From a virus (lineage: Duplodnaviria; Heunggongvirae; Uroviricota; Caudoviricetes): a stretch of 39,497 bases of DNA. The DNA lies in IMG/VR virus record IMGVR_UViG_2778261536_000006, one strand, 5' to 3'. Numbering within the stretch: position 1 is the first letter of the stretch; the number at the start of each line of letters is the position of its first letter. A program made the position numbers and the translations under genes. Positions 1-39,121 of this stretch are shown here, one piece after another. The notes beneath the pieces were generated by a model. That model was given only the letters and a program-made list of their open reading frames with translations, was not told the DNA's origin and searched no databases.

Positions 1-573
1 ATGTTTTGCGAAGAAAAAGTAGCTCAAATGGCTGCATACCTACTTCTTAAGCGAGGTGGGCGCATGGCATATCTGAAATTGATGAAGTTGCTCTATCTGT
101 CTAACCGCCAGTCGATTTTGAAGCATGGCAGGATGATCGGCGAAGATAGCCTTTACTCTATGAAATTTGGACCAGTCATGTCGAATACGCTGAACTTGAT
201 TCGCGGTAAGGCTGAAGGCATTGGTGACTACTGGTACAACTTGATAGAGACGAACGGGCATAATGTATCGTTGCGTTCAGATCCGAGGGAAATGGATGCA
301 GACGAGGTCTTTGATGAATTGAGTCGTGCAGATATCCGGATTTTAGATGAAATCTATTCTCGGTATGGGCATATGAACCGATTTGATCTCGCAAATATGA
401 CGCATTTAGAAAGCGTTTGTCCAGAGTGGCACGATCCTGGCAATTCTCGTAAGCCTATAGACCTGAAAGAAATGCTGATCAGTGAGGGTAAAAGCGAGGA
501 TGAGGCTAATCGCATAATTGGCAAAATGGAAGAATCTCAGAAACTTAAGGAATTTTCTTTGCAATTATCATGA
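1..573 (+). CDS. Panacea-domain (DUF4065, SocA/GepA-like) phage-associated protein, putative antitoxin
   Basis: 190-aa ORF with LKLMKLLYL and GPV motifs that I recognise as Panacea-like; stop overlaps the next ORF start (ATGA). Confidence 0.5.
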   Translation: MFCEEKVAQMAAYLLLKRGGRMAYLKLMKLLYLSNRQSILKHGRMIGEDSLYSMKFGPVMSNTLNLIRGKAEGIGDYWYNLIETNGHNVSLRSDPREMDADEVFDELSRADIRILDEIYSRYGHMNRFDLANMTHLESVCPEWHDPGNSRKPIDLKEMLISEGKSEDEANRIIGKMEESQKLKEFSLQLS

Positions 574-989
574 CGGATTATCAGCCATACAGGAAAGGAA
601 CTGTGCTTGCCCCAACTGGGCCATGCAATCATCTTCATGTGATTTGTAATGATCCTGTTTATTACCCCGTTAACGATTGTTATTGTGTTTTAGTTGTTAA
701 TATTTCTAGTATCAAGGATGGTGTCCCCCACGATCCGTCTTGCGTCTTGAATTCTGGTGATCATCGCTTTATCAAGCATCCAAGTTATGTTGTTTACGCT
801 GAAGCTATAATTTGGCGAGTGGATAACATGGTTAGAAAGCAGCGATCGGGTGAGATTTCTGTTCATGATGATATGCCAGAAGCTACATTCAATAGAATTC
901 TGGACGGTTTTGATATCTCTGATGAAGTTACGCCAAAGAACCTTAAATTTAAAAATAAATATTGCGTATCATCTATTGATGATGAGTAA
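570..989 (+). CDS. Hypothetical protein, candidate toxin/effector partner of the Panacea-like gene
   Basis: 139-aa ORF whose ATG overlaps the upstream stop by 4 bp, implying translational coupling; no family recognised. Confidence 0.45.
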   Translation: MTDYQPYRKGTVLAPTGPCNHLHVICNDPVYYPVNDCYCVLVVNISSIKDGVPHDPSCVLNSGDHRFIKHPSYVVYAEAIIWRVDNMVRKQRSGEISVHDDMPEATFNRILDGFDISDEVTPKNLKFKNKYCVSSIDDE

Positions 990-1028
990 ACAACAGGAAT
1001 TGTTTCGGTATAACTTCAGGAGTTTTCT

Positions 1029-1202
1029 ATGGAAGATCAAAAAGCAACCAAGCCACAGGTTAAGTTCGACACAATGAAAGCATTCGCAGGTATGGGTGCT
1101 GCTGTTGAAGTTCTGATGAAGGCTGCTCCTAATGCGTTCACTCACGCTACTGTCTCTGGTAAAGAGCAGCAGGGTAAGCTTCGTCGTCGCAAAGCAGCAT
1201 GA
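1029..1202 (+). CDS. Small hypothetical protein (57 aa)
   Basis: ATG at 1029 preceded by AGGAG (1018-1022) with a 6-nt spacer; below the ORF-track length cutoff; followed by a terminator. Confidence 0.35.
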   Translation: MEDQKATKPQVKFDTMKAFAGMGAAVEVLMKAAPNAFTHATVSGKEQQGKLRRRKAA

Positions 1203-1221
1203 TCATAGCTGGTGCTTTTTG

Positions 1222-1248
1222 AAAACCCGCCTTTAGGCGGGTTTTTTA
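1222..1248. terminator. Bidirectional rho-independent terminator
   Basis: AAAACCCGCC-TTTA-GGCGGGTTTTTT: GC stem flanked by an A-run and a T-run, between convergent genes. Confidence 0.7.
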
Positions 1249-1249
1249 T

Positions 1250-1558
1250 TTAGTGATGTTCTTTGCCCTTCTGTTTGCTTGTTCTGACCTGTTCCCACTC
1301 GATACGTCCTTCTTCTCGTCTTTTGTCTATGTATTCCGCAAGATCCTGAATATTGATGCAACGTTTTGCTTTTTGCGATGTGCCGATGCGATATGTTGGA
1401 ACGGGCAACTTACAAGCGTTTGCTTTTGCTTCTGCCGTGGCTGGACTCATGCCAAAGTACTTTTGGCTAACTGCTGAGAGTTCAATGTTAGGGGTATTGA
1501 ATTCAGCCATCAGTAAAAACAAGGTGTTCATAATTTTCTCCATCAAAACCGGCTGCAC
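1250..1558 (-). CDS. PrtN-family (MerR-like HTH) DNA-binding protein, possible excisionase-like regulator
   Basis: 102-aa ORF, last gene of the leftward early operon; N-terminal MNTLFLLMAEF region resembles PrtN-type regulators; start codon uncertain (three in-frame Met). Confidence 0.45.
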   Translation of the reverse strand: MQPVLMEKIMNTLFLLMAEFNTPNIELSAVSQKYFGMSPATAEAKANACKLPVPTYRIGTSQKAKRCINIQDLAEYIDKRREEGRIEWEQVRTSKQKGKEHH

Positions 1559-1567
1559 CCGGGAAAA

Positions 1568-2140
1568 TCATAATTCTGTGCTGGTGGCAGGAATTAATTT
1601 CTGCCAGATAGCGGAAACATATTTTGCCTGATGACGGGCATCGGCCAGGGCGTTGTGCCGTTCGCCATCGAAAGGCATGTCCATTTTGGGGGCGAATCCG
1701 ATGGAACGCCCAAGCGTAACGATCGTGCGTACATCGTGGTCATTCCAGTATGCCCACGGGCAGATTTGTCCTGCTCGCTCATAAGCTCCACGTAAAATTA
1801 CGTTGTCGAAGGTGGCCCCGTTACCCCAGACTTTTAAATATTTTGTATTGTCTGCATGCTGATTAATGAAATGGCTCAGTTCAGAGAGTGCATCGCTGAT
1901 CGACAAAGTATCATCAATACAGATTGCAGCTCGTGCTTCAGGGCTCTGTTTCAACCACCACAGGATGGTATCGCCGTCAGGTGTGGCCCCTTGCTCCATA
2001 GCACTTTCCAGGCTGACAACCGTATAGAATTCTTGTCCGATGTCTCCGGTTTCTGGGGTGAAGAACACCGCGCCAATGGAAACGATTGGTGCATCCTTAT
2101 TTTTCCCCATCGTCTCAAGGTCGATCATTAAGTTGTTCAT
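1568..2140 (-). CDS. DEDD-type 3'-5' exonuclease (DnaQ-like, phage-encoded)
   Basis: 190 aa with N-terminal IDLETMG motif typical of DEDD exonucleases. Confidence 0.6.
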   Translation of the reverse strand: MNNLMIDLETMGKNKDAPIVSIGAVFFTPETGDIGQEFYTVVSLESAMEQGATPDGDTILWWLKQSPEARAAICIDDTLSISDALSELSHFINQHADNTKYLKVWGNGATFDNVILRGAYERAGQICPWAYWNDHDVRTIVTLGRSIGFAPKMDMPFDGERHNALADARHQAKYVSAIWQKLIPATSTEL

Positions 2141-5216: not shown

Positions 5217-5909
5217 TTAATTATGTCTCTTAAGGGTTTGCGACTGACTGATTAAGACCTTTCCAAAGACCATGAATCGGTGTTCGTTTTCGCTAGTAAT
5301 TCCCCATTCACGGTAAATCTGGTTATCAGAAATCACCAGCAGTTTGTCAGGAATCATTTGAAGTCTTTTAACGTATATTTTGTCATCAAAACCAAAGACA
5401 TATATACCATCACCATCAAACTGATTGATGCTGACATCAACGAAGATGAGATCTCCTGGCTCAATGGTTGGACACATACTGTCCCCACGAACGTTGATAA
5501 CTTTGATGTGATTGGCTGGTCGTCCGCCGAACATTGATACAGCATTATCAGTTCTGTATTCGATGGCATGAATCACATCAATGACATCACCGCCCTGGAT
5601 AAGGCCATTTCCCGCACTGGCACTGATATCCAACATTTCAATACGGAACACATCCTTCACCTGCGCAACATCCTCATCATTACTGTTTTTATATACAGTA
5701 TTACTTTTGAGGGCAGAGGTAAAGAGATCAGCAATATCAACACCTAAGCTCTTGGCAATATTACTCAGTGTTTGTTCGGTAAATTGTTTCTGCTTACCCG
5801 TTTCTAAGCGCGAGATGTTCGCCGCATCTACTCCTATTGCTTCAGCGAGATCGGCGATTTTCATGTTCTTCGCTTGGCGAAGTTGTCTGACTCGTTTTCC
5901 TATGTTCAT
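5217..5909 (-). CDS. CI-like phage repressor (HTH-XRE plus S24 LexA-like peptidase domain)
   Basis: 230 aa; N-terminal HTH and C-terminal S24 motifs (GDSM...KRL); divergent from the Cro-like gene. Confidence 0.85.
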   Translation of the reverse strand: MNIGKRVRQLRQAKNMKIADLAEAIGVDAANISRLETGKQKQFTEQTLSNIAKSLGVDIADLFTSALKSNTVYKNSNDEDVAQVKDVFRIEMLDISASAGNGLIQGGDVIDVIHAIEYRTDNAVSMFGGRPANHIKVINVRGDSMCPTIEPGDLIFVDVSINQFDGDGIYVFGFDDKIYVKRLQMIPDKLLVISDNQIYREWGITSENEHRFMVFGKVLISQSQTLKRHN

Positions 5910-35848: not shown

Positions 35849-35875
35849 CTTCTCCTGTTTTTACAACAGGAGAAG
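35849..35875 (+). promoter_or_regulatory. Perfect 11-bp stem hairpin overlapping the invertase Shine-Dalgarno
   Basis: CTTCTCCTGTT (35849-35859), loop TTTAC, AACAGGAGAAG (35865-35875); the AGGAG at 35868-35872 lies in the right arm, 8 nt before the ATG. Confidence 0.35.
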
Positions 35876-35880
35876 CACTC

Positions 35881-36444
35881 ATGATTTACGGGTATGTTCG
35901 TGTATCAACAAATCATCAGGATACAGAGTTGCAACGTCTTGCACTTGAGTCAGCTGGCTGTGAGCGAATTTATGAAGAATATGCCAGTGGCAGAACAGCT
36001 AATCGCCCTGTGTTAAAGGAATTAATTACGGTGATGAAAAGTGGAGATGAGTTGATTGTCTGGAAGTTAGATCGGATAGGGAGAAATGTGCTGCATGCGC
36101 TATTGATGTTTCAAAATCTGCACGAAAAAGGTGTTAATTTTCGGAGTATTACAGATGGCGTAGACCTGAAAACAGCAAGTGGTCGCTATAATTTCCGTAA
36201 TATTCTTTCTGCTGCGCAGTATGAATCTGATTTGAATAGCGAGCGAACTTTAGCTGGTTTGGCTATTGCCAGATCCAAAGGCCGGATTGGTGGGCGTAGA
36301 CCGAAGTTTAGCGACGAGCAGTGGCAACAGATGGGAGCGCTCATAGCGGCAGGGAAATCACGGCGTTATGTTGCACGTATCTATAACGTTGGGCTATCAA
36401 CCCTATATAAACGATTTCCTGTTACTGGCATTCAAACGAAATAA
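35881..36444 (+). CDS. Serine DNA invertase (Gin/Pin/Hin/Cin family)
   Basis: 187 aa; N-terminal YGYVRVST with catalytic Ser, resolvase core, C-terminal HTH; adjacent to the invertible fibre segment. Confidence 0.85.
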   Translation: MIYGYVRVSTNHQDTELQRLALESAGCERIYEEYASGRTANRPVLKELITVMKSGDELIVWKLDRIGRNVLHALLMFQNLHEKGVNFRSITDGVDLKTASGRYNFRNILSAAQYESDLNSERTLAGLAIARSKGRIGGRRPKFSDEQWQQMGALIAAGKSRRYVARIYNVGLSTLYKRFPVTGIQTK

Positions 36445-36587: not shown

Positions 36588-36836
36588 TTAGTGAACAAAC
36601 CACTCGTCAGCAGATTCCCAGGTATCTTTCAGAGTCTCCTGAACAAAAGTTTTTGCAGAATCCTTATCTGCGGTGCGTGTAACAGAAAGGCCATCGTTGC
36701 TGGTGGCTTTTACGATCACCTCTACATCGTCATAACGTTTACTGATGCGTCGGGTTAATTCTTCCTTTAACGCATCCACAGCACCGGTTGGCATTTTAGT
36801 CATTTTTTCTTTGGCTATGCAGATTTCAATACGCAT
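36588..36836 (-). CDS. DinI-family protein
   Basis: 82 aa starting [11 protein letters not shown] with C-terminal [16 protein letters not shown], closely resembling DinI; two SOS boxes upstream. Confidence 0.75.
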
Positions 36837-36849
36837 AAAAGTCCCTCTA

Positions 36850-36901
36850 TACTGTGTTTGTATACAGTATTATTTTTAACTGTATAGATAAACAGTGTCA
36901 A
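36850..36901 (-). promoter_or_regulatory. Tandem LexA (SOS) boxes overlapping a promoter for the DinI-like gene
   Basis: TACTGTGTTTGTATACAGTA (36850-36869) and AACTGTATAGATAAACAGTG (36878-36897), both CTGT-N8-ACAG; minus-strand TTGACA at 36896-36901 with an A/T-rich -10 about 17 bp downstream. Confidence 0.7.
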
Positions 36902-37995
36902 GAGGCCTTATTTCTGCTCCTTTGGAGCTCTTCAAAACGATTATGTAAAGATTTCGGATACAGTTCGGTATATACCTGCCATAGCACGTTTAATGAACGA
37001 TGCCCTGTAACCTGGGCGACTTCCTCAATACTAAAACCAGCCTCAAATAAGCGACTTGCCCCTTCTCTACGCAAATCATGGTATCGCAGATCTTTAATAC
37101 CTAATTTGCTTCTTACCCTCTGGAATCCCGCAGTAACAGAAGTGCTGTTATATGGAAAAATGAATTCTGATTTTTTGGGTTGTCGTTGGACGATATCCCA
37201 GGCTTCCCCAAGCAAGGCTACTTTCATATGGTTGCCTTCCTTTTTACGTGGATCTTTCCTGTCTCTTACGAGTATGGATTTTTGTTCCTGATCGAGATCC
37301 TCCCATCGTAATCGGCATACTTCACCGATTCGCATACATGACCACACAGAAAATTTGAGGATATCAACGAACGGAATTTTTGAGCATTTATGTGTAGATC
37401 GTTGTTGAAGACCTTCAATGAGCATGTCCAGTTCATCAGATGCCGGTCTACGATTACGACGATTTGATTTACCAATTAAACCAAGTTTAAGTAGATATGG
37501 ACGAGCGGCTTTTGCTGGGTTTGATGTGTAATTAATTCCATATACAGGTTTGGCAGCATCCAGAACACTGCCAAGATAACTAACATCGTGGCTAACTGTA
37601 GCTGGACCTGCACCAGCGTTGTTTCTTAGCCTGCAATGTTCAATTACGTCATTTTCTGTCAGTTCAGATAGTTTGATCGCGGAGATGTCACTATCCATAA
37701 GCAGTTCCAGCACATATCTTTTAGTACGGCCTGCTTTACCTCCGGCATTTGGGTCATTTAAATATTTGTGTAGTAAGTCACGGACTGTAAGTCCGTCAAC
37801 TGCATTTGATGATGGAATGCCATATAGATCTAATTCCATCACTTTCTGTGTGCCCCATGTTTTGGCATGAGCATGTTTAGGGAATGTTTTACTTTCCCTG
37901 TAAGTGATAACACCTTTTTCTTTGATAATCACATTACAGCGATAGCGTGGTGTGCCATCGGATTTTAGTCGTTTCTCTATGTTATAGTACGCCAT
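36898..37995 (-). CDS. Tyrosine integrase (DusA-associated type)
   Basis: 365 aa with C-terminal tyrosine-recombinase motifs; start is 88 bp from the dusA start codon, transcribed divergently. Confidence 0.85.
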   Translation of the reverse strand: MAYYNIEKRLKSDGTPRYRCNVIIKEKGVITYRESKTFPKHAHAKTWGTQKVMELDLYGIPSSNAVDGLTVRDLLHKYLNDPNAGGKAGRTKRYVLELLMDSDISAIKLSELTENDVIEHCRLRNNAGAGPATVSHDVSYLGSVLDAAKPVYGINYTSNPAKAARPYLLKLGLIGKSNRRNRRPASDELDMLIEGLQQRSTHKCSKIPFVDILKFSVWSCMRIGEVCRLRWEDLDQEQKSILVRDRKDPRKKEGNHMKVALLGEAWDIVQRQPKKSEFIFPYNSTSVTAGFQRVRSKLGIKDLRYHDLRREGASRLFEAGFSIEEVAQVTGHRSLNVLWQVYTELYPKSLHNRFEELQRSRNKAS

Positions 37996-38083: not shown

Positions 38084-39121
38084 ATGCACGATAATCATGA
38101 AACACAAAAAATTAATCAAACCAGCGTGATGCCTGAAAAAACTGGTGTTTACTGGAATTCTCGGTTTAGCATTGCTCCTATGCTCGACTGGACGGACAGA
38201 CATTGCCGCTATTTCTTGCGTCTGCTTTCCCGCAATACGCTGCTGTATACCGAAATGGTGACCACAGGGGCGATTATTCACGGTAAAGGTGATTACCTGG
38301 CGTACAGTGAAGAAGAACATCCGGTAGCGTTGCAACTCGGCGGTAGCGATCCGGCGGCGCTGGCGCAGTGTGCGAAGCTGGCAGAAGCGCGCGGATATGA
38401 TGAGATCAACCTGAATGTCGGCTGCCCGTCTGACCGGGTGCAGAACGGCATGTTTGGTGCGTGTCTGATGGGTAATGCGCAGCTGGTTGCCGACTGCGTG
38501 AAAGCGATGCGCGATGTGGTGTCGATTCCGGTGACGGTGAAAACGCGTATTGGCATCGATGACCAGGACAGCTATGAATTTCTCTGCAATTTCATCAACA
38601 CCGTTTCCGGCAAAGGCGAGTGTGAGATGTTCATCATCCACGCACGTAAAGCCTGGCTTTCGGGGTTAAGTCCGAAAGAAAACCGTGAGATCCCGCCGCT
38701 CGATTATCCGCGTGTGTATCAACTGAAGCGTGACTTTCCGCATCTGACAATGTCGATTAACGGTGGTATCAAGTCGCTGGAAGAGGCCAAAGCACACCTG
38801 CAACATATGGATGGCGTGATGGTCGGGCGCGAGGCGTATCAGAATCCGGGTATTCTGGCGGCGGTAGACCGGGAGATCTTTGGTTCCTCGGATATCGATG
38901 CCGATCCGGTGGCGGTAGTGCGCGCCATGTATCCGTACATTGAGCGTGAACTCAGCCAGGGGACGTATCTCGGTCATATTACCCGGCATATGTTGGGCTT
39001 GTTCCAGGGTATTCCTGGCGCGCGGCAGTGGCGGCGTTATTTAAGTGAAAATGCCCATAAAGCGGGTGCAGACATTAATGTGCTGGAACACGCGCTCAAA
39101 CTGGTGGCGGATAAGCGTTAA
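38084..39121 (+). CDS. dusA: tRNA-dihydrouridine synthase A
   Basis: 345 aa, highly recognisable DusA sequence ([16 protein letters not shown]...[10 protein letters not shown]...), followed by pspG as in E. coli. Confidence 0.9.

Follow-up and report, generated by a model that had tools for sequence, protein, structure and literature searches.

Kurata et al. 2022 (PNAS, PMC8832971) grouped the proteins paired with Panacea antitoxins into toxin clusters. In that study, cluster T6 has a validated pair from Pseudomonas moraviensis (WP_083354365.1 / WP_083201923.1, PMC8832971), whose toxin (PanT) is toxic, is neutralized by and co-purifies with its antitoxin (PanA), and specifically inhibits 35S-Met incorporation, blocking translation specifically and not replication. 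Here we describe a probable natural member of this cluster at the left end of the Caudoviricetes record IMGVR_UViG_2778261536_000006, a stretch of 39,497 nucleotides that we call the window. Two open reading frames, ORF1 (panA) and ORF2 (panT), occupy positions 1–989, and we put at about three in four the probability that they form a functional type II PanA-PanT(T6) toxin–antitoxin (TA) cassette. As in the described T6 pairs, the antitoxin has a Panacea domain and lacks an N-terminal domain, the antitoxin gene precedes the toxin gene with an overlap of -4 or -1, and the toxin is a Pfam-less protein of ~130–140 residues with a predicted EndoA/PemK/MazF fold. The host and the element differ, however: ORF1 and ORF2 reside in a dusA-integrated lambdoid prophage of Escherichia coli, and ORF2 is only ~37–48% identical to those T6 members with which it was compared.

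Other described systems share single features with this locus. In SocAB of Caulobacter, a type VI TA system that includes the founding Panacea/DUF4065 protein, SocA is a ClpXP adaptor that leads to the degradation of SocB, and SocB blocks the DNA sliding clamp. The Pfam domain of SocA is the same as that of ORF1; however, ORF1 scores well below the cut-off of the SocA equivalog model NF047745 (14.4 bits, cut-off 190), and the PanA proteins studied so far neutralize their toxins by direct binding, unlike SocA. The MazEF and Kid-Kis (PemIK) systems resemble the locus in the predicted fold of the toxin, whereas their antitoxins are of the MazE/AbrB or ribbon-helix-helix (RHH) type and not Panacea proteins. 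ORF2 has neither a PF02452 match nor significant profile similarity to their toxins, its family conserves a His/His/Asp set where MazF uses Arg29 and Thr52, and it carries an extra C-terminal helical region of ~45 residues (helices 84–93, 104–116 and 122–131). CapRel, finally, is a fused toxSAS that senses a capsid protein through its own C-terminal domain. CapRel(SJ46) and other prophage-encoded TA-type abortive-infection systems are, as here, toxin/neutralizer units carried as variable prophage cargo; PanA/T6 pairs are not known to have a trigger or a defence phenotype.

A Panacea protein coupled to a conserved partner

An earlier note on this DNA, made from its letters without database searches, had associated ORF1 with the Panacea/DUF4065 domain and read ORF1 and ORF2 as a translationally coupled pair, a candidate TA or abortive-infection cargo. 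A profile search confirmed the domain: over residues 27–137 ORF1 matches PF13274 (SocA_Panacea) with 70.9 bits (cut-off 25.7; E 2.2e-19), in an alignment that spans profile positions 1–109 of 113, and its RefSeq entry, WP_000458584.1, carries the name 'Panacea domain-containing protein'. ORF1 is a Panacea antitoxin-type protein. It has no N-terminal helix-turn-helix or other DNA-binding domain, and after the Panacea core comes a C-terminal extension, residues 138–190, which is mildly acidic (isoelectric point, pI, 5.0). Although window position 1 is the A of the panA ATG, the gene is complete and not cut by the window edge, the same 190-residue protein being annotated both in RefSeq and in Escherichia phage SKA5, with ~250 nt of non-coding DNA upstream. 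Many IMG/VR prophage contigs are likewise cut at the panA or the panT start, which is an artefact at the prophage boundary.

The sequence and the ORF list agree with the coordinates of both genes and with the ATGA stop/start overlap between them (Table 1). No Shine-Dalgarno sequence precedes the panT ATG at 570 at a usable distance. RefSeq (PGAP), in WP_014640052.1, instead starts ORF2 at the GTG at 603, giving a protein of 128 residues. This choice drops 11 conserved codons, including the beginning of strand β1. M1, P6, K9, G10 and T11 are common to 53 ORF2 homologues, and changes in codons 2–12 are mostly synonymous (for example, six synonymous and one non-synonymous in the comparison with Serratia). 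Because the N-termini of the homologues are conserved and these codons change mainly synonymously, we take ATG 570 to be the real start of panT and the RefSeq start to be an annotation error, from which it follows that the coupling is real and that the ATGA overlap couples translation of panT to that of panA. Over the whole of ORF2 the non-synonymous divergence (dN) from Kosakonia and Pluralibacter is ~0.09, with synonymous sites at saturation, which indicates strong purifying selection on panT.

The arrangement is conserved well beyond E. coli. We drew 31 homologous loci from species-representative genomes of Enterobacterales, Vibrionales, Methylococcales, Burkholderiales, Sphingomonadales and Rhodobacterales; the pair is conserved over Gamma-, Alpha- and Betaproteobacteria. 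In 30 of the 31 loci the ORF2 homologue is immediately preceded by a PanA-like ORF, the exception being cut by a contig end, and the adjacency of panA and panT is thus not a matter of chance. Each of the 28 PanA proteins scanned, one from the window and 27 from homologous loci, matches PF13274. Among 30 loci, 16 have a stop/start overlap of -4 and two more an overlap of -1. Together, the Panacea domain of ORF1 and its conserved, coupled partner support the two-gene TA reading of the earlier note.

Relatives of the pair are also found in phages and prophages. A relative is encoded by each of 120 IMG/VR viral contigs, and ORF2 itself is intact and 99–100% identical in dozens of prophage contigs. 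A related PanA/T6 pair adjoins int in Yersinia phage YeP1, another is present in a Klebsiella phage, and the P2-like Pseudomonas phage Sirocco carries its pair in a cos-proximal position, flanked by the end of the genome and the portal gene. E. coli P2-like phages have a documented anti-phage hotspot in the cos-proximal region by the portal gene, and in comparison with the P2/P4 defence hotspots one homologous pair thus lies in the region corresponding to the P2-like one. PanA/T6 pairs therefore occupy accessory positions of unrelated temperate phages. In the Sirocco record (OR683410) the pair is at 929–1884; the toxin ORF (1486–1884, 132 residues) is unannotated, and what the record shows in its place is a small ORF of the other strand, 1741–1875.

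Table 1. Features of the panA-panT locus, its surroundings and the alternative occupant of its slot (window positions unless a locus is named)
Feature	Position	Strand	Details
ORF1 = panA	1-573	+	190 aa; stop TGA 571-573
ORF2 = panT	570-989	+	139 aa; ATG 570-572
ATGA stop/start overlap, panA/panT	570-573	+	read from sequence
Swappable cargo cassette, part inside the window	1-1015	+	blastn breakpoints against alternative allele
ORF3	1029-1202	+	57 aa, basic (pI 10.2); AGGAG 7 nt upstream of ATG
Intrinsic terminator	1221-1246	+	11-bp stem with 6 GC pairs, U-tract; TTTTTTATTT
xis, PrtN-family excisionase	1250-1558	-	PF11112, E 4e-23; phrog_1300 'excisionase'
exo, Rv2179c-like 3'-5' exonuclease	1568-2140	-	same strand as xis
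DinI-like gene	36588-36836		
Integrase	36898-37995		
Intact host dusA	38084-39121		
Alternative cargo, 177-aa protein	L035 1784-2317; L037 1784-2317		slot left of window 1016

Assignment of ORF2 to PanT cluster T6

ORF2 has no significant match in Pfam, NCBIfam, PADLOC or the sequences of the PDB, and its PHROG family, phrog_19071, is labelled 'unknown function'. The link to a described toxin came through the ORF2 family. A profile of this family retrieves WP_002684473.1 of Beggiatoa alba (E 3e-35), which is 37% identical to ORF2 in a pairwise BLASTP comparison (E 3e-26) and which is listed as a T6 toxin, in the order A|T and with an overlap of -4, in Dataset S1 of Kurata et al. (PMC8832971). 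The T6 list also includes the genomes of Pantoea septica LMG 5345 and strain 2016-Iso4 (PMC8832971); in both, an ORF2 homologue follows a PanA gene, and the overlaps (-4 and -1, respectively) are those listed. The PanA protein of phage Sirocco begins MIFSEQKVAQ, the decapeptide that Kurata et al. restored on the P. moraviensis PanA (PMC8832971), the overlap of the Sirocco pair is -1, and ORF2 and the Sirocco toxin share 48% identity. On these comparisons we assign ORF2 to PanT cluster T6.

Searches aimed at the P. moraviensis toxin itself gave no direct match. A profile search contained no Pseudomonas protein among the best 120 of 270 matches, and a search with a divergent family member gave 12 matches, none of which was named. 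The E. coli accessions of the pair do not appear in the available Kurata or NetFlax supplement text. The T6/ORF2 family is very large: counted as representatives of clusters at 50% identity, it has 3,626 members at E ≤ 1e-3, of which 2,187 reach E ≤ 1e-10.

Predicted fold and conserved residues of PanT

An AlphaFold2 model of ORF2, made from 54 sequences, was confident (pLDDT, the predicted local distance difference test, 90; pTM, the predicted TM-score, 0.83). In a Foldseek search of the PDB all of the top 50 matches were MazF proteins, with marginal E-values (best 3e-3) and target-normalized TM-scores of 0.49–0.63, and the best matches in a fold search of BFVD were phage proteins named 'PemK-like' or 'endoribonuclease'. 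MazF-type RNases dominate the structural matches and score above CcdB. The model thus gives ORF2 a MazF/PemK/CcdB-like fold, an SH3-like barrel. The earlier note had been unable to place ORF2 in any family and considered that it might be a new toxin domain, which did not hold: structure prediction and fold search, which it had itself proposed, lead to a MazF-type fold, and the family comparisons lead to cluster T6.

PDB sequence searches with ORF2 and with the family profile returned chance-level matches only, and none of 45 diverse ORF2-family members matched Pfam. Because the hhalign comparisons with MazF and Kid were not significant, the relation to MazF is one of predicted structure, and ORF2 is not a sequence-level member of PF02452. 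In the wide ORF2 family H21, H65, Y76 and G113 are invariant, and L22, D55, C58, S72 and S117 are conserved in at least 90% of members. A non-significant hhalign alignment sets S46 of ORF2 opposite T52 of MazF. The pI within the family ranges from 5 to 9.7 and is mostly basic (median 8.5). An argument from an acidic toxin to a CcdB-like protein target was dropped in view of this range.

An exchangeable cassette at the attL end of the prophage

Phage SKA5 matches the region at 100% identity and phage Lys8385Vzw at 99.2%. In the chromosome zur is followed by a DUF2713 gene, a 5' fragment of dusA (attL), panA, ORF2, ORF3, xis, exo and on to cI/cro, with the integrase gene and an intact dusA at the far end of the prophage; when the phage DNA is circular, panA has int and attP immediately upstream. 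The window runs ~1.5 kb beyond attR into the chromosome at its right end, whereas on the left it begins precisely with the start codon of panA.

Comparison by blastn with the alternative allele, that of phage mEp460 and of O157:H7 prophages, places the breakpoints of the cassette at 5807 and 7016 of locus L001, that is, at window -193 and 1016. The two alleles cease to share DNA 193 nt before the panA ATG, and their similarity returns at window 1016, where the mEp460 match begins, 13 nt before ORF3. The exchanged unit is ~1.2 kb long, brings its own upstream region and is low in GC (panA 43% and panT 39%; the window as a whole 51%). Its slot is taken in phage mEp460 (as gp23) and in O157:H7 prophages by the gene of an unrelated 177-residue protein, WP_000956557.1, which has no Pfam match and which may be another defence or exclusion gene. 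Among 5,426 complete E. coli genomes, 565 match a 1,300-nt query, 205 of them with at least 80% of it covered; the ORF3-xis backbone is present in 562 genomes and panAT in only 205 (~4%). panAT therefore forms a discrete cargo unit of a dusA-integrating lambdoid prophage, placed at the attL end, where it alternates with an unrelated gene. The earlier note had described the module as autonomous accessory cargo, in agreement with the precise breakpoints, low GC and patchy presence of the cassette.

A promoter-like sequence, TTGACC-17-TAAACT, is found at L001 5846–5874, 127–155 nt upstream of window position 1 and within the upstream region that the exchanged unit brings along. Promoter-like sites upstream of panA are no more numerous than in shuffled sequences. 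The candidate -35 element lies inside a 14-nt imperfect palindrome, TTGACCATGGTTAA, outside the window and without statistical support; a search for an upstream operator found only this short palindrome over the candidate -35, and it was not significant. The two elements together are a possible promoter/operator of the cassette.

ORF3, the terminator and neighbouring genes

The earlier note had included a 57-residue ORF with a strong ribosome-binding site in the module. The AGGAG sequence before its ATG agrees with the latter point; the ORF itself, ORF3, is kept beside xis when other cargo fills the slot, as in mEp460 and the O157:H7 prophages, and we therefore rejected it as a third component of the module. 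ORF3 belongs to phrog_2741 (E 8e-36) and is found in only five phage records, all of this lineage. It is part of the phage backbone, probably co-transcribed with the cassette but separate from it.

The terminator downstream of ORF3 ends the panA-panT-ORF3 transcript, separates it from the convergent xis gene and likewise belongs to the phage backbone. It had been called bidirectional. This GC-rich hairpin is strong on the plus strand, whereas on the minus strand only four U follow the stem, so that the description is only weakly true, and a terminator scan reported it on the plus strand only. The observation that the module is transcribed opposite to the early operon was correct, with xis and exo of the early-left operon both on the minus strand. 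The product of xis belongs to the PrtN (pyocin activator) family; RefSeq calls a shorter, 282-nt version of the gene (1250–1531), and the 309-nt version of the mEp460 record corresponds to 1250–1558.

At 33639–36444, the genes for tail fibres and fibre assembly come first, then inverted alternative copies of them (34995–35804, minus strand) and a DNA invertase ORF (35881–36444). This segment looks like a Gin/Cin-type invertible host-range switch, as it is annotated in SKA5.

Discussion

The Panacea domain, the predicted fold, the membership of ORF2 in its family, the conserved and coupled pairing, and the boundaries of the cassette come directly from the searches and comparisons above. Toxicity, neutralization, complex formation and inhibition of translation would be expected by analogy with the P. 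moraviensis homologue, and from these together we infer a ribonuclease chemistry, a set of catalytic residues, a trigger and a role in defence. We propose that panA and panT would be transcribed in the lysogen from their own promoter just upstream of the window, and that panT would be translated by reinitiation at the ATGA, so that the toxin would be made only along with its antitoxin. PanA, supplied in excess through coupled translation, would bind PanT directly and keep it inactive, whereas free PanT, with its predicted MazF fold, would stop growth by blocking translation. PanT is most likely an endoribonuclease, a reading that we favour slightly, and its active site would consist of His21 and His65 (with Asp55 and Ser72) and not of the Arg/Thr pair of MazF. 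The most likely benefit would be protection of the abortive-infection type, in which a superinfecting phage cuts off or titrates PanA and PanT is freed. We regard this defence role as plausible, at somewhat less than even odds. Stabilization of the prophage, with PanT freed when the element is lost, could be an alternative or an additional role.

Several observations weigh against this proposal. No model of PADLOC-DB v2 is matched by ORF1, ORF2 or ORF3 at E ≤ 1, and our searches found no publication that reports phage defence by a PanA/T6 pair. The toxin activity of the E. coli pair is a prediction from its homologue, and the tie to the validated P. moraviensis toxin is indirect, through cluster membership and the Sirocco pair. 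The proposed RNase activity draws on the predicted fold and on the translation phenotype of the homologue, and at the level of sequence there is no similarity to MazF: against MazF, Kid and an alignment of four MazF sequences, hhalign probabilities stay under 1%, and PF02452 is matched neither by ORF2 nor by 44 diverse relatives. The catalytic Arg of MazF has no invariant counterpart, and the ORF2 family contains no invariant Arg. In addition, a different E. coli phage PanA pair, of cluster T1, was reported as 'not toxic' (PMC8832971).

The best-surviving alternative is a genuine PanA-PanT module that serves only prophage addiction or stabilization, by post-segregational growth arrest, and has no anti-phage role. 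This would be classical type II TA behaviour, it agrees with the lack of a matching defence-database model and of a published PanA/T6 defence phenotype, and the cassette lies at the very end of the prophage by attL, where imprecise excision or deletion would remove it. Addiction would, however, bring little, because integrated prophages segregate with the chromosome. Moreover, about two thirds of the related prophages are without the cassette and have another gene instead, which is the pattern of diversifying defence cargo, and a homologous pair lies in the region corresponding to the P2-like hotspot. We thus hold addiction as the sole function to be a tentative alternative and on the unlikely side.

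It could also be that ORF2 uses the MazF/CcdB scaffold for something other than RNA cleavage, acting on a protein target such as gyrase (as CcdB does), a translation factor or the ribosome, or through other His/His/Asp chemistry. The T6 representative, however, inhibits translation specifically and not replication, MazF-type RNases and not CcdB lead the structural matches, and the mostly basic pI of the wider family makes an argument from charge weak; together these render a non-RNase toxin distinctly improbable. That the pair is not a functional TA module in E. coli at all, ORF2 being non-toxic or decayed or having another phage function, is very improbable. In its favour are the 'not toxic' verdict on an E. 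coli phage PanA pair of another cluster and the truncated ORF2 of RefSeq. Against it, the truncated start is an annotation error, both genes are under strong purifying selection, the pair and its coupling are conserved over three classes of Proteobacteria, and ORF2 is intact in many near-identical prophage copies.

Returning to the PanA-PanT(T6) cassette itself, the locus would be a clean natural E. coli example of a known TA family and not a new kind of system. RefSeq shortens its toxin, and the very large T6 family to which it is assigned has no Pfam, NCBIfam or PADLOC model. A more speculative idea, which we consider unlikely, is that T6 PanT proteins may repurpose the MazF/CcdB scaffold, with His21, His65 and Asp55, for another chemistry or target, and that PanA may be a sensor that releases the toxin on superinfection; if both were true, the cassette would be an uncatalogued abortive-infection system. 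The remaining interest lies in the biochemistry of T6 toxins and in their possible role in defence, and with a native host and inducible phages (SKA5 and Lys8385Vzw) the E. coli pair provides an easy system in which to ask what T6 toxins cut or bind and whether PanA-type modules protect lysogens.

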